DNA of 64,000 nt from assembly GCA_000004695.1 (NCBI GenBank), contig CM000152.2, positions 5,600,001 through 5,664,000 of the forward strand, read 5' to 3'. The position numbers were made by a program, and so were the translations under genes. The stretch is from Dictyostelium discoideum (taxonomy: Eukaryota). Below are positions 3,605 to 54,661 of this stretch, piece by piece; position 1 is the first letter of the stretch; every line of letters starts with the position of its first letter. The notes under the pieces were generated by a model. The model was not told where the DNA came from. It saw only the letters and a list, made by a program, of their open reading frames with translations, and did not search any database.

Positions 3605-4393
3605 AATAATAAAATTTAATAAAATTTAATGAAACTTAATGATATTAATTATTTTTCTTAAAAATATAACCTTAACTCTCTTTTTTTTTTTTTGTTTTTT
3701 TTGTTTTTTATTTTCCTTCTAAACTCTCCTCTTAAAAAAATAAAAAAAATCTTAAATGAAGCTTATTAAATAACTTATTAAATAATATAGGTATATACTT
3801 ATTTTATTATATTAAGTGTATATACATGTATTATTATTATTGTTGTTATTAATAATAATATTATCACAATAATTGTTATTAAATAAAAAGAGTGTGGTTT
3901 TTTTTTTTTTTTTTTAATATGTAAAGAATTCCCTATTAAATTTCTTTTTTTTAATTTTATTGAAATATGAAAAAAAAAATCAATATTGGGTAGAAATAAA
4001 TAAATTGTTTCCTAAATGAATCTCTTACAATATATATTTTTTTTTCTTTACTTTTATTTATAAAATAAACTATTTTTTTTTTTTATATTTAAATATATTA
4101 GTGTACACCAATTATTGAATGAAAACAAACGGTTTGTCTATATGTTAACAAAATTGAAAAAAAAAAAAAAGAAAAAAAAAATTATATTTTTTTTAAAAAA
4201 AAAAAAAAAATTAAAAATAATTAAAAAATAACTTGCGGGTGAAAAAAATAATTAAAATAAAATAAAAAATAAAATTTAAAAAAAAAAAGTGCAACAAAAC
4301 CCAAAACAGATTTTTTTTTTTTTTTTTTTTTTTTTGCGTTTGGAAAGAATATATAAATATTTTTTTATTTTTTCCTATTAAGTTTTTATTTAA

Positions 4394-4612
4394 TTAGTAT
4401 GGAGTAAATCTTTTTTTTTGAAAATTTCCATTATTTAAGGAGTTCGGATAATTAAAATATAATTGTTGGGGTTGAAGTTGTTGTTGTTGCTGTAAAAGTT
4501 GTAAATATGTATTATCCATTGGTAAATTTCCATTAAAGTTATTAAAATTATTATTGGTATTATTATTTAAATAATTTAAAAATTGTTGTTGTAATAATTG
4601 TTTTTGTTGTTG

Positions 4613-4654
<42 letters not shown>

Positions 4655-6049
4655 TAGTTGGTTATAATGTACACTTGAGTTTTTATAATGTTGGGGAATA
4701 TGAGGATTAAAAGATGTACTTCCAAATAGATTCCCATTATTTATATTATTTAAATTATTAAAACTATTATTTAAATTATTCAAATTATTTTTTTGATTAT
4801 TGGAAATTCTTTGTAATTTTCTTTGAATCTTATCGGATCTTAATTTTTTATCTATTGGTTTTGCAAAACTTAATGACAAAACCTTACCATTTATATTTAT
4901 TGGTTTTTCTTCATGTATTCTTAAAATTTCTTCGGCCAATTCTCTAGTTTTTAAATGAACAAAAGCATAATCTCTTTTTGAATTATTTAAACTATTATTA
5001 TTATTATTAATATTATTATTATTTAAATTATTATTTAAATTATTAATAATTTCTAATGTTGGAGCACCTTGAGGTATTATTATTTTTTCGATTATATCAT
5101 CTTTGTTATTGTTATTATTATTTAAAAGTGATAAAGAATTTTCTTGAATTATATCATTAATTATTTTTGTAATTGATAGGTCGTTTCTATGATTTAATGG
5201 TAAATTTCTAATATAAATTGCTTTAATTTCTTTATTTTCCAATGGATCATTTTGAGGATCTAAAGTTGTAGGATCAGGATCTGACCAATTCACAGTGAGA
5301 GTAGTAATATAATCACCCAATTTTACAGTTGAAGCTGTTAAAATTCTACGAGCAGTATCGGCTAAATAATGATCTTGATATTCGATGAAAGCAAAACCTC
5401 TATTTTTATTTGGTTGGTCTGGTGACATTAAGAAATCGATTGATTCAATACCTTCAGTTTTTTCATTAAATATTGAAATGAATTGTTCCTTTGATAGATC
5501 TTTTGGTAAATTACCAATGAATAGTTTACGTTTGTTCTCGGATTGTTTAACTTCAATGATTTTACCTTTAATCGATTTACCATTTAATTTATCAATAACA
5601 TTTCTACACATTGATCTATCATTAAAAAGAACGAAACCAAATCCTTTACTCTCACCAGTTAATTTATCTTTCATTAATCTAATTTCCAATACATTATTAT
5701 CACTATTTTCATTGAAAATTTCTAATAACTCTTCTTCATTAACAGTTTTATTTACACCACCAAAAAATATTTCATTATTTGCATTTCTTTGACTTTTACT
5801 AATACTATTATTATTATTATTGATTGAAATGTTATTATCACCATCTTTAATTAAAGTACTTGTTGATGGTAATTTTTTATTTTTAGATTCTGGTGATCCA
5901 TTTGTTGAAATGGAAGTTGAAGTTGATTTTATATCATCATTTAATAAATTCTCTTCAATTAAATTATTATTACTAATTAATGACGAAGTTGGTGAACGAT
6001 CTGATGATGATAAAACACTTTCTTCATCACTCTGTGTATAAAAACCCAT
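4394..6049 (-). CDS. hnRNP R/Q (SYNCRIP/A1CF)-family RNA-binding protein with three RRM domains
   Basis: 551-aa ORF. RRM1 has RNP1 KGFGFVLF, RRM2 has RGFAFIEY and RRM3 has RDYAFVHL, with the spacing typical of the hnRNP-R/Q family. N- and C-terminal regions are low-complexity Asn/Gln. Confidence 0.8.
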
Positions 6050-6729
6050 ATATTTTAAAATTTTTATAATTATTGATACAAATAAAAATACAATTTAAAA
6101 TTAATAACATATAAATAAATTTAAAAAATATATAATAATATATATTTATTTTTAAAAAATTAGTTATTAAATAATAAAAAAAAAAAAAAAAAAAATTTCC
6201 AACACTTTTTTTATTTTTTTATTTTTTTAAGATAATTAAATTTTAAATTTTTTAAGAAATATTATTTTTTTTTTTTTATATTTAAGTGAAAATTATTATA
6301 GAAACATACAATTGAGTCGGTTGAAGATGTAGAGGATGGCATTTTTTTGGAATAGTTTTAAAATTCCAATAAATGAATTAACTTGAATATTTGGGATGAT
6401 TTGTAAATTTAAAAATAATAAAAACAATAATAATAATCTAGTATGGTGAATTATAATAATAATAAAAAAATATATATTTATATTTATATAAATAAAAAGA
6501 TAATTATTGTAAAAAAAAAAAAAAAGATTTTATTAAAAAAAAAAAATATTCCTTAAATTAATTTTTTTTTTTTTTTTTAAATTGACACACATTACGTGGA
6601 TTTTTTAAAACATCTTAAAATGGTGTTATTATATTATAATTCACTTCATTGTTTTTTTACCACTTAAAAGTTATCGTGTATTTTGTTTTTACCATTTTAG
6701 TTAAATTGAAAAACATAATTATACACAAA

Positions 6730-6768
<39 letters not shown>

Positions 6769-7243
6769 ACTAATTCGTGAAAATACCACACAATAGTTTT
6801 TTTTTTTTTAACAAAAAAACGAATTTATTTCCTTTTTTGAAATTTCTTTTACCCCCAAAAAAATAAAAAAATAAAATAAAATAAAATAAAATAAAATAAA
6901 ATAAAATCCCCCAATGATATAATTGATTTTCGCAATTCAAGTTTACGCATATGTGGGAATTCAAATTTTGAAATTAGTCAAAAAAAAAAAAAAAAAAAAC
7001 TAACTTTGTAAAAGATGGTCATGATGGTATATAAAAAAAAATAAAAAAAAAAAAAAAAAAAAAAATTAATAATTAATAATTAAAATTTGACACTTAAATA
7101 TACATAAAATGATTTTGAGTTCTCTATTTTATTTACTAAATTCATATTAAAAAAAAATAAAATTAAATGATTATTAAAAAAAAATAAAAAAAAATATTAT
7201 TTTTTTTTTTTTTTGTTTTATTTATTTTTTTTTGGTGGGGAAT

Positions 7244-9652
7244 TTAATGTTTAATATCAAGTTCATTTTCACTTTTTATTTGTATACCCAATTCATTTGC
7301 TTTATTTAATTTTGCAATTGCAGGTTTTTCACCAATTAATAGAATTTGAGTAAAAGAATTTATTGATGATTGAACTTTTGCATTAAATTTTCTTTGAATA
7401 AAATCTTTTACAAAATCTCTATCACCCAATTTAAATTTACCAGTAATTACAATATATTTATTTGATAAAAAACTATTATTATTTTCATTATTATTATTAT
7501 TATTATTATTACCAATTTCTTCATTATTATCATTATTGTTATTATGAGTTAATTTTAAATTATTTGATTTAAATTTAAAAATTAAATAATCTAAATATTG
7601 TTTTTCAAATTGATCTAATGGGTTAAAGAAATTAAAGATTGATTCAGAAGTTTGTCTACCAAGACCAGATTGTAATTCAATTGATTCGATTGATGGTGAA
7701 TTAATTAGATTATCCAGAGATTGAAATTTCTCAGAGAGGATCTTTGAATTTGAGCTTCCAATACCAGGTATACCTATAGCACAGAGTAGTGAAGCTAAAC
7801 CACGTGATTTACTATCCTCAATTGATTCTAATAAATTATTAACTTTTGTATGACTAAAACCTTTCAATGATAATAGTTTTTCCTTAAATTGATAAAGTTC
7901 ATACAAGTCACCGAAATCTTCAATTAATTGATTCTCTAATAATACTTGAATTTGACTTTTACCAACACCTTGAATATTCATTGCTTTCTTATCAACAAAC
8001 CATGAAATTTGTTGAACTAATTGATTTGGACAATTTTCAGCAACACAAAAATAATCAACATATCCAACTCTATTAACTAATTCACTTTTTAAATTACATG
8101 GACATAATATATTACCATTTTCATTACATTTAAATAATGATTCAATATTATTGGTATTATTGGTATTGGTATTGGTATTGGTATTATTGATATTATCATC
8201 AAGGTTAGTAATTATTTTTGGAATTACATCACCAGCACGTTCAATTAAAACTTTTGAACCAATTTTAATATTTAATTTATTGATGTATGAGAGATTATTT
8301 AAAGTTGCACGAGAAATGGTAACACCATGAACTTGAATTGGTTCAACCAATGCAACTGGTGTAATTCTACCACTTTTACCAACTTGTAAAACTATATCTT
8401 TTATTGTTGAAATTTCACTCTTTGCTCCAAATTTATATGCAAAAGCCCATCTTGGTGATCTATTAATGTCTCCTAATATTCTTTGAATATTTATATCATT
8501 CACTTTTATAACTATACCATCAATATCCCAATTATGATTCTCTCTTTTTTTAAGTTCCCATTCTTTTATAAATTCTTCAATATTTTTTATATCATTATTA
8601 TTACCACCACCACCAGTAGATAAAGTTACAACTGTATTTGAACCATTATCAATTTGAAATCCCATTTTTTCAAAAAGTTTTAAATTCTTTGATTGTGTAT
8701 TACAACGTTCATCATCAATTATCATTTCATTGTCATTTTCCTTTTCATTATCATTTTCATTTTCATTTTCACCATTATTAATATTATTATTGTTATTATT
8801 AGTTGGTATAAAAAAGTATGGAAAGAAATCAAATTTCATTTGTTCATTTAATAATAATATTGGTTCAATATTTAATGAATCATTAGCATCTTCTTCAATT
8901 GATTTCCTTAGAATACCAGATACAATATTTCTTGTATTTTTATATTGATGTTGATCATTATTATCAAGTTTTAATTTATTTATAATTTTTAAATATGATT
9001 TATTTAAAACAACCTCACCTCTAATTTCAAAATCTTTATATTTCTAATTAAAAAAAAAAAAAGGAATTAATATTAAATAATAATAATAATAATAATTACT
9101 AATATTAGAAATAAAATAAATACGGTTAAATTTGAAGGTAAAGTTAATAAATTTTTAAGTGATGGAATAAATTGTAATGCATTTGTTGTGATATCTTCAC
9201 CAATTTCACCATTACCTCTTGTTAAAACTCTTTTTAATTTATTATTTTCATAAACTAAACTTATACCAATACCATCATATTTCAATTCTAAAGAGTATTC
9301 AATTTGTTGTTGTGGTTGTTGTTGTTGTGATGTTTGTTTTTTTAATAGAAATTTCTCAATTTTATTTTTGAATGCAATTATATCATCTTTTGAATAAGTA
9401 TTTTGTAATGATAACATTCTTGATTTATGTCTGAATTTTAATCCTCTATTATTACTATAATCACTAATTGGTGCTCCAACTTGATTAGTAATAGTTTGTT
9501 GATTAAATTTCTTTTCTAAAATTTCTAATCTTTTAAATAATTTATCATATTCGAAATCTGATATTTCACTTTTAGATTTATTATAATATAAATCATTATA
9601 TCTATTAATTTTATTTCTTAATTCTTCAATTTCAATTATTTCATTATTATTA

Positions 9653-10804: not shown

Positions 10805-11967
10805 TTAATTTGTTGATGATAATGAAGCGGCATGTTTATCTTCCCAATATTGAATTCTTTTTGAACTAATTCTATGTTTTATTACATATTTAATAAAGAT
10901 ATCTTCATCAATTTCAAATGTTTCAAATGATCTTAAAATATTATAACATTTTTCAAAACTATCTTTATTTGCTAAAATTGATTCTTTAAAAAAAAAAAAA
11001 AAAAAAAAAAGGTCAGGATTTTGTTGTGTGTGTTTAGAATATGATATTATTTTTAATTTTTAACTTACTTTCATTTAATCTAAATAAAGCCATTGCAATT
11101 GAATAAACTATTGTATAACCTTCAGAGAAGATTAAATCCCAAACACGCAAGGAGATATGAAATGGGAAAGAATCTAAGAAACCAATTAGGAACCATTTTG
11201 TTGAATAAAGGGTGGTTGTTAAGTTAATATTATCTAAAGCATTTTTAGCAGCGGGGAAATAATGATTTAAAAGATTTTCAAAAACGAATGACATTCTTAT
11301 TAGACCTGGTAAACCTGATAAAAACATTGATCTCATTGAATATTCTGGTCTAGACATTAAAGATTGTAAAGTCCAAAAAGCATCTTCCTCTGATAGATAC
11401 ATCACTAATAAAGAAGCGATCGAACTCATACCTTGAGTATAGCCAACACCTTGGTCGTATAGTGAATAAACTTTCAAGACATTGAATAATGATACTTGAC
11501 CCATACCATAACGTTCTCTAAAAAATATATGATTTCTATAAGCTCTATTAACATCCAAATCTATATAAATCTCATTTGCAGAATGTTGATTCACCAATTG
11601 ATTGAATAAACCTGGATTCCTGGATTTCTCTTCTTGAGCATGTGATAACAATGGCCAAACCTCTGATCTCATTCTATCGGGTATACCTTTAATAGATCTA
11701 GATTTAAATTTACCTGTAAACTTGTGATTCAAATTATATCTCTTTATCATTGCATTCCATTTAATTGATCTTTCCAATTCTTTTTCAATCTCTTTTTTAT
11801 TCTTTAAAACACTTATATTTGATGTTAATCCACTATTAATAGTTGATCTTCTTGTATATTTTCTAGGTACTGGTGCAATTGGTGGTGATGGTGGTTCATT
11901 ATTAATTTCTTCATTTGTATTATTATTTGTATTATTATTTGTATTATTATTACTTGTATTATTATTT

Positions 11968-27680: not shown

Positions 27681-28149
27681 TTAATTTAATTAACTCTAAT
27701 TAATTAATTTATTAATTAATTCAACCTTGGAAATTATTTCTTTGGTCATTTAAAAAATGTATTTTAATAAAAAAAAAAAAAAAATTGAAAAAAAATTATA
27801 AATTTTAAATTGTTTTAAAATTATATTTACCTTAATAATATTATACAAATAAAATTAATTATTATTATAGTGACAATAATAAAAAAAAAATTTTAATAGT
27901 AATTAAATGATTTTTTTAAGTTATAAAATATTTTTTATTTTTAATATTGAATTTCATTTTTTTATTTTTTTTTTTGGATTTGAATATATATTATATTGAT
28001 GTTATTGAAAGTTTTTTTTATTTTTTATTTTTATTTTTTGAATCTACTATATAAATAGCTTTTTTAATTAGGAAATTACTATAAATAGCCTTTGATGGTG
28101 AACTGCTACTGTTTTTTTATTATGTCACAGTTAAAATTAATTGTTTGAA

Positions 28150-28260
28150 AAAAAAAAAAAACAAAAAATTGGTGGGAGCTATTATTGCTTGTGTTGAAAA
28201 TATTGTATTCTTAAATTTAAATTTTCCCACACATATTGGTAAATTAAAATAGTATTAAAA
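28150..28260 (+). promoter_or_regulatory. Conserved promoter module of the array (representative copy). It contains TATAAATAG boxes and a near-invariant roughly 60-bp GC-containing dyad element about 230-300 bp upstream of each ATG.
   Basis: The core TTGGTGGGAGC(G/T)ATTATTGCTTGTGTTGAAAATATTGTATTCTTAAATTTAA(T/A)TTTTCCCACAC recurs at about 27040..27110, 28170..28240, 29320..29390, 30430..30495 and 31400..31465. It shows only 1-3 substitutions among copies while the flanking A/T sequence drifts. GTGGGAG...CCCAC forms an inverted-repeat dyad. Confidence 0.4.
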
Positions 28261-29961: not shown

Positions 29962-30696
29962 TTAATTTAATTAACTCTAATTAATTAATTTATTAATTAA
30001 TTCAACCTTGGAAATTATTTCTTTGGTCATTAAAAAATGTATATATGTAAAAAAATAAATAAATAAAAATTACAAAATAAATCATTGTGTGTTGGTTTTT
30101 TTTTAAGTGTTAATCTTTTCTCTATCTCTCAACAATTGGATTACCATATTCGAATGGCTTTGTAGGATCAGAAAGTATATTTATATATTTTTATTTTGAA
30201 TTTCATTTTATTTTAATTTATATTTCTAACTTTTTTTTTTGAATTTGAAATTATGTAATTAATAGTTTTTTTTTTTATTTTATTTTTTTATTTTAAACCT
30301 ACTATAAATGCATTTTATATATGGAAATTACTATAAATAGCTTTTGTGGTGAAGTGATACTGTTTTTTATTATGTCACAGTTAAAATTATATTGTTGGAA
30401 AAAAAAAAAACAAAAAAAAAAAAAAGCAAAAAATTGGTGGGAGCGATTATTGCTTGTGTTGAAAATATTGTATTCTTAAATTTAATTTTTCCCACGTATT
30501 GGTAAATTAAAATATTATTAAAACAGTTAATCATTTTTATTTATTATATCAATATCAATTAATTTAATTTTATTTAATTATATAATTTTTTTTTTTTGGT
30601 GAAAAAAAAAAGTATAAATTGAAATTAAAAATAAATTATTCATCATTGAAAAAATATATTATTTGTTAAATAAAAAATTAAATTTTAAATAAAAAA

Positions 30697-31244: not shown

Positions 31245-31283
<39 letters not shown>

Positions 31284-31689
31284 TATAAATAGCTTTTTTA
31301 ATTAGGAAATTACTATTAATAGCTTTTGGGGTCAACTGCCACTGTTTTTTTATTATATCTCAGTTAAAATTAAAATGTTGAAAAAAAAAAAAAAAAAAAT
31401 TGGTGGGAGCGATTATTGCTTGTGTTGAAAATATTGTATTCTTAAATTTATATTTTCCCACACTTATTGGTATATTAAAATATAATTAAAACAGTTGATC
31501 ATTTGTATTTAATAATTAATAAACATAATATTAACATCACCATCAATTTATTTAATTTTATTTTATTTAATTATTTAAATTTTTTTTTTGGTAAAAAAAA
31601 AAAGTATAAATTGAAATTAAAAATATATTATTCATCATTAAAAAAATATATTATTTGTTAATTAAAAAAAAAAATTTTAAAATAAAAAA

Positions 31690-48018: not shown

Positions 48019-49047
48019 TTATTTTAAATAATTACATAATGCGGTTTTGCAATTTGAATTATTGGTTTCACTTCTAAAGAATTTTAACAAGGTTGCATAA
48101 CAACACTCTACATTAGCAAAATATTTTCTATGGAATTTCTTGGCACTCCATTTTTTGTTGTTTTTTTTCTTGAATTTTGATTTTACCTTTGAACATCGTT
48201 CAGGAATGGGAATTTCAATTTTTATTATGTCTTGTTTACCATTTTGTTTTTTTCTTGACTTTTCTTCTACAATATTTATATGTTGAGTTGGGTGGTTCCA
48301 TTGATTGTAACAAAGGTCATATAATCTTTGGATATCACCTTTATACAATTTAGTACCTTTTGTAAGTTTAAAAGTTGATCTTATAGCATAATGATTGATT
48401 TTTGCTTCTTCTGAGGATGTTGTTGCATTTTTCAATACTTTAAAACCTAATGATTTGCTGTTAGAGGAATACATTATGTTATCAATCGAGTTTCTACCAG
48501 TTGTTGTTTCTATATCTTTATCATTTGCAAAAGAAATTTCATTTCCTAATTTCTCTTTTATTTGAGTTCTATTATGATTTATATCACCAGCAATTAAAAA
48601 AGGAATATTTTTTTCAATAAGTTTTGATACCAATCTTTCCAAAATAAAAAAATTTTCCGAAGCACTATTTTGTGATTTCTTTTGTGGTATATGGCAATTA
48701 ATTACTACAAAGTAAACGTCCTTATGTTTAAACGAAACAATATGGAGTCTTGTACCACTCTTAGCTTCAAATTCTTCAATAACTTTAAGACTTGAATTAT
48801 TATATATTATTCTTTATTGATTTTCTTTTTTTGATTTATCTCTTGAACCTGTTTTATTTTTTAAATTTCCATAGTTCTCGAAATCCTGAAAATCTCTATC
48901 AATCTCTTGTAAACATAATATATCATTTTTATTAAAATTATTTAAAAGCAATTCATCCTTTATTTGATTTTTGAATGTATTTTTAAGAGGTTTACCACCT
49001 TGGATTCCTGCATTTAAACTTCCTACAGTTACCCTGGCTGAATCCAT
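48019..49047 (-). pseudogene. APE/EEP-type endonuclease-domain gene, copy A; single in-frame TAA (about 48810)
   Basis: Track ORFs 48814..49047 (MDSARVTVGSLNAGIQGGKPLKN...NDILCLQEIDRD...KKENQ*) and 48019..48642 (...NIPFLIAGDINHNR...NSIDNIMYS...INHYAIRSTF...) are the same frame separated by one stop. Motifs match AP-endonuclease/EEP motifs: DILCLQE(T/I), GD(F/I)N, (R)IDxI and (S/N)DHxP-like. Copy C has CTA (Leu) where copy A has TAA. Confidence 0.6.
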
Positions 49048-49509
49048 TTTTTAAATTTTTAAAATTTATGTGATTTTTTTTTTTGCTAATAAAAAAGAAT
49101 TTACAATAAATATAAAAAGATTAGTTTTATGTACAGTTTGTTAATGGTATCATTACAAATATAAATATATGTATTATTTATTGGTTTAAGCTGATTAGAT
49201 ATCATTATTTTAAATAATTATTTAATGCAGCTTTACAATTTAGATAATGGGTTTCACCTCTAAAGAATTTTAACAAAGTTGCATAACAACACTTTACATC
49301 ACCAAAATATGTTTTATGGAATTTCTTTGCACTCCATTTTTTATTTTCCTTCTAGAATTTTGATTTTACCATTGAACATAATACAAGATGTGGGAATATT
49401 GAGATTTTCATTTTTTGTTATGTTTTGGTTACCATTTTGTTTTTTTCTTGGCTTTTCTTGTTGAGTGGGGTGGTCTTTCAATTCATTGTAACAAAGGTCA
49501 TATAATTAT

Positions 49510-50040
49510 TTAATTATTTAATTCAGTACCTTTTTTAATGTTAAATGTTGATCTTATAGCGTAATGATTGATTTTTGCTTTTTCTGAGGATGTTATTGCA
49601 TTTTTCAATACTTTAAAATATAATGATTTGCTGTGAGAAGAAAACATAATGTGATCGATTGAGTTTTTACCAATCGTTGTTTCTATATCTTTATCATTTG
49701 CAAAAGAAATTTCATTTCCTAATTTCTCTTTTATTTGAATTCTATTATGATTTATATCACCAGCAATTAAAAAAGGAATATTTTTTTCATTAAGATTTGA
49801 TACCAATCTTTCCAAAATAAAAAAATTTTCAAATGCTTTTTCTTTGGATTTCATTTGTAGTATATGGCAATTAATTACTACAAAGTAAACGTCATTGAGT
49901 TCAAACGAAACAATCTGCCTATCTTAACTACAACTTCTTCAATAACTTTTAGATTGAATTATTATAGATTATTCTTAGTTGATTTTCTTTTTTTAATTTA
50001 TCTCTTGAACTTGTTTTATTTTTTAAATTTCCATAATTCT
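49510..50040 (-). pseudogene. APE/EEP-type endonuclease-domain gene, copy B; 5'-truncated with multiple stops
   Basis: Track ORF 49510..49854 (MKSKEKAFENFFILERLVSNLNEKNIPFLIAGDINHNRIQIKEKLGNEISFANDKD...INHYAIRSTFNIKKGTELNN) is homologous to copies A and C. The upstream part 49855..50040 retains recognisable codons (GNLKNKTSSRDKLKKENQLRIIYNNS) but carries several stops. The N-terminal third is absent. Confidence 0.45.
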
Positions 50041-51049
50041 TAAATTTAATTATATATTTATTTTATTTAATATTTTAAATTTTAATATTATGTGTTCATT
50101 ATAAGATTTATTATAATATTAAGATTTAAAAAATAGGGGTTTCGATTATTTAAAAATGGAATTTTTTTTTTTTTTTTTTATTTATGTTTTTTTATTTTGT
50201 TATTGAATTATTAAAAATAAAAAAAATAAATATAGAAATTAAAAATAGAAAAAAAAATATTTAATTTGTGAAGTTGGTTTTTGTGTAACAGAAATAATTA
50301 CTAAAAATAATTTGTTAAAAAAATAAAATAAAAAAAAAAAAAAAAATTATTTTTTTTTTTTTGAGAATTGATTTTTAAAAATTATTTCTGTGAATTATCC
50401 ATTTTTTTTTTTTTTTTTATTTAAAATTTCTATTTTTTTTTTTTTTTAATTTTATTTATTTTTATAGCTATTTAAAAATTTTCAAAAAAAGATTGTTGTA
50501 AAAATTCAAAATAATATAATCATTTCGTTTCAGAAGAAGTAGTTAATCAATTCAAAAAAAAGGAAAAAATAATATCAGATTTTGATTAAATTTTTTATTT
50601 TTTTGAACACAACCACTTGAAAATTAAAATCAAATAATAATATTGTTAAATACAATTATAATATTTAAGGATCCTAATTAAATAAAAAATAAGGTACAAC
50701 AGTTTATTAATAAAATATTATAAATATATATTTATATATAAAAGCTTTATTTAAGTATGAATTTAATAGAAATTATTGATGTTTGGATGTAATGATTTTA
50801 AACATTCATATTAATATTTTACAATTTGTTTAGTACTATTATCATTACATATATAAATGATATGTATTATATGTTTAAGTTGATTAAAAATTATTTAAAT
50901 AATTAATTAGTGCAATTTTGCAATTTAGATTTTGGCTTTCACCTTTAATGAGTCTTGACAATGTACTTTTAGAACAACTACCATTAAAATATTTTTCATG
51001 AAATCTAGTGGCATTCCATACTTTGTTTTCATTCTTGAATTTTGGTATT

Positions 51050-51940
51050 ACCAATTTAACTAATATATCATTGGGAATATCATCACCAATTTCAAATTTT
51101 TGTTTTGTTTTGTTGACAATTTTGTTTTTCTATTGGTCTTTCAATTTCTTTGTTAATAATTATTTGTTGATTGAGGCGGTTTTTCCATTGATTACTACAA
51201 TTATTATATAAATATTGGATATTTCCTTTAAGCAAATTTATACCTTTTTTAAGTTTAAATTTAGATCTTTAAGCAAAATGATTGATTTTTGCATTTTCTG
51301 AGGATATTGTAGCATCGTTGAATACTTGGAAATTTTCTAATATATTGTGATTGGAGTACATAATGTGATCGATTGAGTTACCACCTGTTGTTGTTATTTT
51401 ATCTTTATCATTTGCAAAATAAAAATGATGACCTATTAAGTTGATTATTTGAGTTCTATTATGATTTATATCACCAGCAATTATAAAAGGAATATTATAA
51501 TAATGAAAATTTTTTACCATTTCTCTCAAAATAAAAAAATTTTCTATTGCACCAAGTTTTAATTTCTTCTTTTGTGGTATATGGCAATTAATTAATACAA
51601 AGTAAACATCATTAAGTTTAAAAGAAACAATCTGGAGTCTTGAACCAATGTCAACTAAAACTTCTTCAATAACTTCAAGATTTGAATTATTATATATTAT
51701 TCTTAGTTGATTTTCTTTTTTTGATTTATCTTTTGAACTTGTTTTATTTTTTAAATTTCCATAATTCTTGAAATCCTGAAAATCTCTATCAATCTCTTGT
51801 ATACATAATATAAAATTTTCAATTAATTTATAATTCTCATCAAAAAACAAATTAGTTTTTATTTGATTTCTGTATGTATTCTTAAGTGATTTACCCCCTT
51901 GGATTCCTGCATTTAAACTTACTAATGTTGCAGTCTCCAT
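51050..51940 (-). pseudogene. APE/EEP-type endonuclease-domain gene, copy C; premature TAA at about 51269
   Basis: Track ORF 51269..51940 (METATLVSLNAGIQGGKSLKN...ILCIQEIDRD...IIAGDINHNRTQI...NSIDHIMYS...INHFA*). The homologous frame continues after the stop (RSKFKLKKGINLLKGNIQYLYNNCSNQW...), matching the copy A C-terminus. The conserved 3' flanks at 47960..48170, 49150..49340 and 50850..51030 define the tandem unit. Confidence 0.55.
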
Positions 51941-52431
51941 TTTTAAATTTTTAAAAATTAAAATTATATGTAATGATTTTTTTAATATTTAATTAATGTT
52001 AAAAAAATAGAAGAAACAATGAATAAATATTTATTTATAATTTTTTTTTCTCAATTTGATGAGTGGATGTAAATTTTAAAAATTTCAGCAATTAAAGTGG
52101 TGAAAAGTAATTTTATGGGTTTGTCGCACTTTTTTTTACTTTTGTTTTTTATTTTCTATGCGACTTACAATTTGCACACTTAAAAATTTAAAAAAACTTA
52201 ATAATAAATAAAAAAATTTAATTACATTTAAATAAATAAAAAATTAAACAATTTTTTTATTTATTTATTTTGTTTATTTTTTTAATTTTCAATAAAAATT
52301 AATTGTTTATTTTGTAATGAAAGTGGCTTTATTTAATTTATAATTTATAATATGAGTTGATGTTATGGAAGTATTTTTTTTTTTTTAATAACATCACTCA
52401 ATTTGAGTGTGTTCTAGGAGAGTTTATTTGT

Positions 52432-52480
<49 letters not shown>

Positions 52481-52493
52481 CTTGTTATTCTTA

Positions 52494-52562
<69 letters not shown>

Positions 52563-52579
52563 TTTATTAATGTTGTTAT

Positions 52580-52626
<47 letters not shown>

Positions 52627-52918
52627 GTAGTTGGTGTTATATCAGTATGGTATGAAGTGTTCCGGGATGTTTATGGTCATGAGTTTCGAGTTCCAGTTGT
52701 GGCTGAATTTTTCGAGTCTTCTTTTTATTGATGCGGTCCGATTGATTGATTCTTGGTTATCAGTGCATCTTAGTTCTTGACGTAATTGCCTTTCTACTAT
52801 CTTTCTTGTTCTATCCCATTCGGCATCTCTCGCTTTTTTGATTTTATGAATTATTTGGTTCTCTGTTATTTTATGGAAGTATCGAAAATAGTTATTCAAA
52901 ATAAATTTTCATAAAAAT

Positions 52919-52991
52919 GCCCGGCTAGCTCAGTCGGTAGAGCGCCAGACTCTTAATCTGGTGGTCGGGGGTTCGAGCCCCCCGTTGGGCG
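52919..52991 (+). tRNA. tRNA-Lys (anticodon CTT)
   Basis: 73-nt cloverleaf GCCCGGCTAGCTCAGTCGGTAGAGCGCCAGACTCTTAATCTGGTGGTCGGGGGTTCGAGCCCCCCGTTGGGCG. It has A and B boxes, anticodon loop CUCUUAA and the same acceptor stem as metazoan tRNA-Lys(CUU). It is followed by T-rich Pol III terminator AATTTTTTATTTT. Confidence 0.9.
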
Positions 52992-53080
52992 AATTTTTTA
53001 TTTTAAAATTTAATAGTACACTGGTTCAATTCTTAACTTGGTCCCACCAATGGTTTAAGAGGATTGTGTAATTATTTACC

Positions 53081-53683
53081 TATTCAAAAAAAATAATAGG
53101 TCACACGAAAGAATTACCAAAAAGAACAATACAAAAAACAAAATCACACCTATAATACCTTCCAACATGAAAAAAGATCATGAAGTAAACATAAACTACA
53201 TTCATTCAAAATTTCATTAACAACATTTTGAATGTTCTATAAAGAAATAGACTATGACCTTTCTAGACATTTTGTATATATAATAGCATTGATTTTACAC
53301 CAAATTTAGATATGGGTTTGGAATAATATACAGCGATGACAAAATTCAGTTAGACTACAACACTATTCTCAAAAAATGTTAAAACATTAGACTATATAAA
53401 AAAAAAAAAAACTTTAAAATATCATCATCAAAAGATTCAATGTCAATCTGAAACAAAAATGAATACCTAAAACAAATTAAAAATATCTAAAATCAAATAA
53501 TCAAAGAATACTGTACCAATGATAGCGTACCAAATAGAGTAATTGTGGAATAAAAAAAATAAATCAAATTATAACAATATAACTAATTGTTGTTATTCAA
53601 AAAAAATTAAAATAATTAAAATAAAATAAAAAAACATTTATTATTGCAGAAGGTTTTAATACTAGCAAATAATTAATTAATAT

Positions 53684-53720
<37 letters not shown>
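53081..53720 (+). mobile_element. 5'-truncated non-LTR retroelement (TRE3-like) or SINE-like retroposed fragment with a poly(A) tail and 11-bp target-site duplication
   Basis: CCTATTCAAAA occurs at 53069..53079 and again at 53721..53731 immediately after an A(36) run (53685..53720). The enclosed roughly 640 bp has markedly higher complexity and C/A content than local intergenic DNA and no long ORF. The insertion point is 87 bp downstream of tRNA-Lys. Confidence 0.45.
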
Positions 53721-53723
<3 letters not shown>

Positions 53724-54002
53724 ATTCAAAACCTTGACATAGAAACATAATGGCATTAATAACTGATAAAATCTGTTTTTGCTTCTGCAACCAATTCACA
53801 TAATTTTAAAAAAAAAGAAGTAATAATAATTGTAATAACACATTTTTAAAAAAATACTGTTTTAGATAATCTAAAACATAATAACAACTGTAATTTAAAA
53901 ATTTAAATTCGGTAAACCTATTTATTTCCTTTAATGAATAAATATTGATTTCTCCAAAATGACATCGAACCTACGACATTATCTTGACTCGATTTAAAAA
54001 TT

Positions 54003-54075
54003 TCACCCATTGTGGGTCTCGATCCCACGACCTGCAGCTTAGAAGGCTGCCGCAATTCCAACTTTGCTAAACGGG
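54003..54075 (-). tRNA. tRNA-Arg (anticodon TCT), probable
   Basis: The reverse complement gives GCCCGTTTAGCAAAGTTGGAATTGCGGCAGCCTTCTAAGCTGCAGGTCGTGGGATCGAGACCCACAATGGGTG. It has D-arm, anticodon stem GCAGC/GCTGC with loop CUUCUAA, T-arm GTGGG-ATCGAGA-CCCAC and a 7-bp acceptor with two G-U pairs. A poly-T follows within 10 nt. It is head-to-head with tRNA-Lys about 1 kb away. Confidence 0.6.
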
Positions 54076-54661
54076 CTTTGTTGAATTTAAAAAAAATTAT
54101 AGCCAAAATCGGCATTAATTTTAAAGTTTGTACCTTGTTTTATTTCTGATGAAAAACATCGGGTATTGTTATTATTTAAATATTTTGTAATTTTCAGCCT
54201 CTATACCATTATTATTTTAATTTTTTTTTTTTTTTTTTTTTTTTTTTGAATTTAATATTTTAAATTTAATAATAATATTTTTTATTATTGTTGAAAAATA
54301 TATGTGGTCAATATTTCAAATAAATATAATAATTTACAATAGATTTATTTAGATATATAATGTAAATTAATAAATGGTTATTAATATTATTATAATTATT
54401 TTTTTTAAATTTTTTTAAATTCTACACAACCTAATATTTAAACCTAATATTTTTTTTTTTCATTTTATTATTGCTTTTTCACACCCAATATTTAAACCAC
54501 AAAGATATCAAAAAAATATCTTAGGAATAAAAAAAAAAAAAAATTTAAAAAATTTTTTTCATTGATTTTTATTTTAGTTTTTTTTTTTTATTTTTTTTAT
54601 TTTTTATAATTATAAAAACACAACAATTTAAAAAAAAAAAATATTTTTTTATCTCTTAAAA

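Follow-up and report, generated by a model that had tools for sequence, protein, structure and literature searches.

Introduction

In Dictyostelium discoideum, 61% of the tRNA genes carry a tRNA-gene-targeted element (TRE) (PMC5006619). The class closest to the locus described here is TRE3, a non-long-terminal-repeat (non-LTR) retrotransposon whose second open reading frame (ORF2) encodes an APE endonuclease, a reverse transcriptase (RT) and a zinc finger and whose copies have a short 3' untranslated region and end in oligo(A) (PMC5911963, PMC5006619). TRE3 elements integrate 40-150 bp downstream of a tRNA gene and in the same orientation (PMC5911963), the integration range tabulated for Dd_TRE3-A to -D being 14-305 bp downstream (PMC5006619 Table 1), and their copies are mostly 5'-truncated (PMC5006619 Table 1, PMC5911963). 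Here we analysed a stretch of 64,000 nucleotides of D. discoideum chromosome 3 (assembly GCA_000004695.1, contig CM000152.2, positions 5,600,001 to 5,664,000, forward strand), referred to as the window, in which a 631-bp insert follows a tRNA-Lys(CUU) gene. With a probability of roughly 0.9, this insert derives from a TRE3-type (tRNA-gene-targeted, L1-like) non-LTR retrotransposon, as a copy that is 5'-truncated and dead.

Compared with the TRE3 family (TRE3-A/Tdd-3, -B, -C and -D), the insert is alike in its position (97 bp from the tRNA gene), orientation, poly(A) end, target-site duplication and homology to the ORF2 tail. Outside D. discoideum, only TRE3-type TREs have been reported from D. 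purpureum (PMC5006619). RT proteins of this Dp_TRE3 (P0153 and P0138) share the C-terminal tail with profile E-values of 1.9e-11 and 1.4e-30, but they belong to another species and are only distantly similar, at about 35% identity over the short stretch that can be aligned to the window copy. TRE5-A (DRE) belongs to a sister group of tRNA-targeted non-LTR elements, and TRE5 integrates 44-54 bp upstream of the tRNA gene in the opposite orientation (PMC5911963); in contrast, the insert lies downstream and is co-oriented with its tRNA gene, while a probable TRE5-like fragment is found across the same tRNA-Lys.

Two more general classes of retroposon offer a further comparison. Truncated insertions of L1, a long interspersed nuclear element (LINE), resemble the window copy in poly(A), in a target-site duplication (of variable length in L1), in 5' truncation and in being dead on arrival without an RT. 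L1 differs in using loosely defined TT/AAAA sites genome-wide, whereas the family of the insert is position-specific relative to RNA polymerase III (Pol III) genes, and the target at the insert (TTTA/CCTATTCAAAA/CC) does not qualify as a T-rich nick site of the L1 type. Short interspersed nuclear elements (SINEs), which depend on LINE proteins, are similar to the insert in being short, non-coding as it stands and poly(A)-tailed. An earlier note on this DNA, made from the sequence alone, had left a SINE as an alternative to a 5'-truncated element. This alternative finds no support in the Pol III-type features looked for: no tRNA-, 5S- or 7SL-derived head occurs in the insert, since Rfam (with gathering and E-value thresholds, the E-value scan covering 52300-54400) sees only two tRNA genes, and the whole body consists of an ORF2 tail and its 3' untranslated region (UTR).

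Results

A poly(A)-ended insert bracketed by an 11-bp direct repeat

The landmark of the locus is tRNA-Lys(CUU), a Pol III gene at 52918-52992 on the + strand (ARAGORN; Rfam tRNA, 66.9 bits), followed by a T6 terminator that can be read from the sequence at 52995-53000. Downstream of it, the window contains the 11-mer CCTATTCAAAA just twice, at 53079-53089 and at 53721-53731, each time on the + strand, against a chance expectation of about 0.17 matches, and two or more matches were obtained in none of 100 shuffles. These two copies, the left and the right copy of the target-site duplication, bracket the insert at 53090-53720, whose 3' end is a pure A36 run (53685-53720, + strand) that abuts the right copy. 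A repeat-bracketed insert ending in a pure A36 run had been described in the earlier note, and both elements of that description are borne out. Its right end and A36 run were also placed correctly, but the left repeat starts at 53079 and not at 53069, and the insert spans 53090-53720 (631 bp) rather than 53081-53720. Likewise, the distance of 87 bp downstream of tRNA-Lys that it gave is true of the start of the left duplication copy, whereas the first base of the element lies 97 bp past the 3' end of the tRNA gene, on the same strand. At this distance and in this orientation, the insert agrees with the published TRE3 preference that the note had invoked.

The base composition of the insert is also unusual for its surroundings, as had been remarked previously: without its tail it has a GC content of about 22%, compared with 8-16% in the adjacent intergenic DNA, and its A content is 50%. 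No ORF longer than 34 aa is present inside the insert, so the earlier statement that it lacks ORFs is literally true, but it misleads, as the body is decayed coding sequence. Self-BLAST of the insert against the 64-kb window revealed no second copy, returning only matches between A/T runs.

By itself, the A36 run is weak evidence of retroposition. The window contains 23 pure A or T runs of at least 30 nucleotides and 72 of at least 20, and the poly(A) at the insert measures A36 in the window versus A29 in another assembly from this lineage (L003 5034-5062). Because long A/T runs are so abundant and the length varies from 36 to 29 between assemblies, homopolymer length is unreliable evidence in this genome. 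What stands out is the juxtaposition of the A run and a recurring 10-mer, not the A run alone: among the 130 A/T runs of at least 15 nucleotides in the window, a G/C-containing 10-mer that follows the run and recurs within 7 kb upstream was found only for the run of the insert and for one repeated gene-family unit.

The body of the insert is a decayed ORF2 tail

The origin of the body was revealed by a related copy in L002, one of the loci from strains and species of the D. discoideum group that were fetched through orthologues of the phosphatidylserine decarboxylase (PSD) gene DDB_G0282337. This copy keeps a 97-codon open frame, and the 97-codon peptide finds four clusters of short predicted proteins (P0131-P0134; 90-141 aa, MKKDHEINIDY...LPNRVIVDQFI) from several new Dictyostelium assemblies. 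A profile built from P0131-P0134 and searched against 1.84 billion representatives matches two long proteins at their very C-terminal ends, P0150 (1189 aa) and P0162 (1448 aa), in each of which Pfam recognises Exo_endo_phos and RVT_1 domains, and it also matches the RT-containing proteins P0153 (D. purpureum) and P0144. Continuity between the two parts is direct in P0144 and P0174, where the region after the RT runs through a CCHC zinc finger (e.g. CKLCEENLGKDPYGHLFFSC) into a tail of the insert type in a single reading frame.

On the window itself, tblastn maps P0132, P0133, P0137, P0174 and P0180 to 53086-53550 across stops and frameshifts, and a codon-by-codon comparison with the intact ORF of the L006 copy counts 5 in-frame stops and 6 frameshifting indels in the window copy. 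Copies with less decay differ from one another chiefly at third codon positions (e.g. 30/22/83 over the three positions), and because of this concentration the tail is taken to be genuine coding sequence in the active lineage. The insert is homologous to the 3' end of ORF2 in an element family that encodes APE, RT and zinc finger and is found in both the D. discoideum group and D. purpureum. The complete architecture, with ORF1 and an ORF2 that contains APE, RT and zinc finger, is present in the family, the window copy being its decayed tail only. The window copy consists of no more than the last ~155 codons of ORF2, starting just past the CCHC zinc finger (53090 to ~53560, + strand; delimited by tblastn, codon-wise comparison and profile search), a 3' UTR of ~125 nt (~53561-53684, + strand; from 8 copies in a multiple alignment) and the poly(A) tail.

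Within the 3' UTR, the terminal ~45 nt are the best-conserved non-coding part in the family, reading ATTATTGC...GCAAATAAT(T/A)AATTAATATC in the 8-copy alignment. RNAalifold predicts for this terminal block a weak stem between ATTATTGC and GCAAATAAT (-2.7 kcal/mol; at the loop end, 2 pairs covary), which may be a hint of a stem-loop and should be read as a hint only. Separately, the window copy carries at 53566-53598 about 35 extra nt of 3' UTR (AAATTATAACAATATAACTAATTGTTGTTATT) that are missing from all other copies and are partly palindromic (ATAACAA...TTGTTAT).

Related copies lie downstream of other tRNA genes

Copies at other loci and in other strains share 72-83% DNA identity with the window insert. 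In the multiple alignment, the closest are L002-A (83%) and the L004 copy (82%), all the others lying at 72-76%. L002-A (L002 3652-4234) is a poly(A)-ended copy located after the orthologous tRNA-Lys, at nearly the same position as the window insert, and it comes from a strain, labelled D. discoideum, that matches the window in intergenic DNA at only about 76-83% identity.

Four other short copies were found downstream of different tRNA genes, at distances of 77-150 bp, and all of them are oriented with the tRNA gene and end in poly(A). In L006, the element at 6877-7522 begins 138 bp after tRNA-Arg(ACG) (6665-6738) and is flanked by the duplication ACTTCTTTTAT; in L007, the element at 6892-7558 lies 77 bp after tRNA-Ser(UGA) (6733-6814) with the duplication ATATAATAAC. 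The L008 copy (about 3860-4545), from the AX4 lineage but on another chromosome, follows tRNA-Gln(UUG) (3709-3781) by 78 bp, with a duplication of about GTMAAAAAAC. The last of the four, L002-B (L002 4893-~5095, - strand), is a shorter, 5'-truncated copy of ~200 bp located about 150 bp after tRNA-Arg(UCU). Duplications of ~9-11 bp could thus be read in three of these four copies (L006, L007 and L008). L002-B is absent from L004, in which the site is uninterrupted at ~5100-5135 even though the PSD proteins of the two strains are 99.8% identical, and its presence and absence between such close strains indicates that the family was recently mobile in that lineage.

The structure of the insert (duplication, truncated 3' part and poly(A)) and the homology to an APE-RT ORF2 family are observed directly, as is the rule of position and orientation, which holds across five copies. 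The proposal of a 5'-truncated non-LTR element of the TRE3 class draws its support from this homology and from the sister copies downstream of other tRNA genes. The copies also resemble each other in extent: their lengths are 631 bp in the window, about 585 in L002-A, 645 in L006, 667 in L007 and about 680 in L008, and the 5' ends of these five fall within ~95 nt, immediately downstream of the zinc-finger codons. Such clustering could be due to a truncation hot spot, a short subfamily or sampling bias.

A long relative and the subfamily of the insert

A long copy of the same lineage is present in L010 (strain GCA_054859355.1), with a 360-aa ORF1, APE at 4677-5744, RT at 5816-7750 and the zinc finger plus tail at 8482-9094, followed by the 3' UTR and A13. 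It is interrupted by two 741-bp elements, 99.9% identical to each other and related to the ends of an adjacent DDE_Tnp_4 transposon. Without these two insertions, the copy measures ~5.3 kb, which is the published size of full-length TRE3 elements (PMC5006619 Table 1). As an observation apart, the 741-bp element, which is similar to a miniature inverted-repeat transposable element (MITE), occurs in L010 at 3769-4508, 7741-8490, 9209-9401 and 11142-11511 in copies that are 99.5-99.9% identical, and it matches the ends of the DDE_Tnp_4 (PIF/Harbinger-type) transposon gene at L010 9512-11153. It looks like a very recently active DNA transposon in GCA_054859355.1.

The long AX4-lineage proteins that were found (P0180, with 79 cluster members, P0181, which is DDB_G0285835, and P0183, P0185, P0191 and P0195) form one family, 92-100% mutually identical, and this abundant AX4 family, represented by P0180 and P0181, is presumed to be TRE3-A. 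In the protein searches, the names attached to the sequences found went no further than 'hypothetical' or 'reverse transcriptase domain-containing'. The lineage of the insert, taken from the L010 ORF2 (P0182), is 58-66% identical to it, the window copy read through its stops shows 28% identity to the abundant AX4 RT family, and P0162 is a third, more distant type. Judged from these sequence identities, the lineage of the insert is distinct from the abundant AX4 TRE3 family. Since no long intact ORF2 of this lineage was present among the AX4-lineage proteins recovered, the insert would fit a subfamily that is minor or has died out, TRE3-D or TRE3-C for example, the former of which has been published as an incomplete 1559-bp consensus with 11 copies, none of them full length.

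Age of the insertion and orthologous loci

Six orthologous loci (L002, L003, L004, L005, L011 and L012) were compared. L003 represents the lineage of the window itself, and a related copy occupies the corresponding site in both L002 and L004. In L005 and L011 (D. cf. discoideum) the tRNA-Lys/tRNA-Arg pair is missing, and in L012 (D. dimigraforme) only the tRNA-Arg is present. The space upstream of the PSD gene is occupied by other elements in two of these loci: in L005 (407-4976) it holds an LTR retrotransposon with RT, RNase H and integrase, and in L011 (1-4568) it holds a 1568-aa RT-containing non-LTR ORF that is 28-38% identical to TRE3 proteins.

Between the window and L002, the insertion points are no more than ~10 bp apart and both flanks can be loosely aligned. 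The identity of the window copy to L002-A (83%) about equals the divergence of the orthologous flanks (77-83% identity). One ancestral insertion shared with L002 and L004 is the more economical reading of these data, but orthology is only probable, because the codon-wise comparison found no disabling mutation common to the window and L002-A copies and because a separate duplication (TATAGGATCT / TATAGTATCT) can plausibly be read around the L002 copy; the same subfamily may instead have hit the L002 site in parallel. The insertion is probably old, given the 83%-identical copy that a divergent D. discoideum-group strain carries at the same position. The earlier note had regarded presence of the insert at the orthologous site as a potential objection, but its presence in the divergent strain argues for an old insertion and not against retroposition. 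Whether the insertion is orthologous or parallel, the window copy is long dead.

Surroundings of the insert

Between tRNA-Lys and the insert, the motif GGTTCAATTCT (53023-53033, + strand), read from the sequence by its resemblance to a B box, begins 30 bp after the tRNA gene, and the insertion occurs 56 bp farther on. In L002 and L004, the orthologous positions retain the motif as GGTTCGACTCT and GGTTCGAATCT, and by resemblance it would fit the external B box (ex-B box) described previously (concept from PMC5911963). On the far side of the insert lies tRNA-Arg(UCU) (54004-54076, - strand; ARAGORN and Rfam), which converges with the + strand tRNA-Lys(CUU), so the two tRNA genes do face each other, as the earlier note had stated. 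According to the orientation rule (PMC5911963), it is tRNA-Lys and not tRNA-Arg(UCU) that the insert targeted.

Upstream of tRNA-Lys, a probable 5'-truncated TRE5-like fragment was recognised at 52582-52863 (- strand) from a T41 run, its position and its orientation. The T41 run, a poly(A) on the minus strand, is followed by ~240 bp of mixed sequence with 34% G+C, and the fragment is flanked by a weak 7-bp repeat, TGTTATT, at 52574 and 52864. Oriented opposite to the tRNA gene, it has its 5' end ~54 bp upstream of tRNA-Lys, and the TGTTATT copy on the right stops 47 bp short of the gene. This geometry fits the TRE5 rule of position and orientation (PMC5911963). The 85-aa minus-strand ORF of the fragment has no Pfam match, and the fragment shows no similarity to any fetched protein or locus; in L002 and L004, the DNA upstream of the orthologous tRNA-Lys lacks this fragment.

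Several other features of the window were recorded along the way. At 51269-51940 (- strand) lies an ORF of 223 aa whose match to Exo_endo_phos (EEP nuclease) is weak and below threshold (E = 0.0048); it belongs to a small local paralogue cluster with matches at about 49330-50045 and 48641-49069, and the gene called there in L002 and L004 encodes 372 aa. Exact matches of this 223-aa protein and of the PSD gene DDB_G0282337 assign the window to a D. discoideum chromosome. A unit of ~160 bp (...GTCACAGTTAAAATTA..., an A run and then TTGGTGGGAGC[T/G]ATTATTGCTTGTGTTGAAAATATTG) occurs three times, at 28050-28210, 30315-30475 and 31280-31440, and probably represents an upstream region common to the members of a tandem gene family. 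An assembly gap of 100 N is located at 2331-2430.

Discussion

By analogy with L1-like elements, the insert would have arisen through standard target-primed reverse transcription. The APE endonuclease encoded by the element would nick the DNA about 90-100 bp downstream of tRNA-Lys(CUU), presumably guided by Pol III factors assembled on the B box and the external B box. Dependence on TFIIIB and TFIIIC has been documented for TRE5-A (PMC5911963), and by analogy TRE3 may recognise Pol III factors at the B box and ex-B box. Reverse transcription of the element RNA would then set out from its poly(A) end and break off, or switch template, after about 0.6 kb, which would account for the 5' truncation. 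The CCTATTCAAAA duplication would come from a second nick, staggered by 11 bp.

Some observations weigh against identifying the insert as a randomly truncated TRE3 copy. The name TRE3 as used here is based on ORF2 architecture, tail homology and integration behaviour, not on DNA of a reference consensus, and the assignment is qualified to that extent. No tRNA gene was detected upstream of the long L010 copy, whose flank is disrupted by transposon fragments, and an empty site was not found among the six orthologous loci. A perfect 11-bp duplication is somewhat unexpected at the age that the L002 comparison suggests, and by a rough estimate its intact survival for so long would be rather unlikely. 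Finally, the clustering of the 5' ends of four or five independent copies is not predicted by plain random truncation.

Another account of the insert would explain this last point. According to it, the copies are not random truncations but a discrete non-autonomous retroposon of ~0.6-0.7 kb, composed of the post-zinc-finger ORF2 tail, the 3' UTR and poly(A) and moved in trans by the proteins of full-length TRE3. Such a unit may have originated from a subgenomic RNA, a fixed short master copy or template switching at a preferred point immediately past the zinc-finger codons. Five copies are indeed similar in length (585-680 bp) with their 5' ends in the ~95-nt zone 3' of those codons, and the conservation of the last ~45 nt is as expected of a 3' recognition module. 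However, three of the copies were found via a predicted ORF with a common internal ATG, which biases the sample to at least that length, and the 5' ends are not identical but spread over ~95 nt. Moreover, both longer copies of the same lineage (the ~5.3-kb L010 copy, and P0137 and P0142, which reach through the zinc finger) and a far shorter one (L002-B, ~200 bp) are known, and the unit is without a Pol III head or a match to another RNA family. All considered, we regard a discrete retroposon as improbable. If true, it would be a LINE-derived, SINE-like parasite in Dictyostelium, of a kind that, to our knowledge, has not been described before.

The remaining accounts do without a TRE3-type element, and the evidence of the family led us to reject them. 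That a chance direct repeat stands beside an ordinary intergenic A run, with no insertion at all, might be suspected in a genome where pure A/T runs of at least 30 are common (the 23 of the window) and where the left CCTATTCAAAA copy ends in an A-rich context. But a sequence expected 0.17 times occurs twice and exactly brackets a body homologous to a mobile family, other copies carry their own, different duplications, and one copy, L002-B, is present or absent between close strains, so that coincidence is very hard to credit. A processed pseudogene of a cellular mRNA would likewise display poly(A) and a duplication, which fit any retroposed mRNA, and a solo LTR of Skipper-2 comes into consideration since this LTR element also inserts downstream of tRNA genes (PMC5006619). 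Against both, the body is homologous to the C-terminus of APE- and RT-containing proteins and recurs beside different tRNA genes, and a solo LTR would neither end in poly(A) nor encode an ORF2 tail, which leaves this pair of origins with a minimal chance.

As a dead, 5'-truncated TRE3-type copy, the insert is one more decayed example of an already known kind of feature. TRE3 insertion downstream of tRNA genes is a textbook feature of the D. discoideum genome, and the finding has little importance beyond annotation. What the locus does offer is a tRNA gene that has been hit from both sides, with a TRE3 remnant downstream and a probable TRE5 remnant upstream, and the 83%-identical copy at the same site in a divergent strain makes it usable for dating insertions and for measuring neutral decay.

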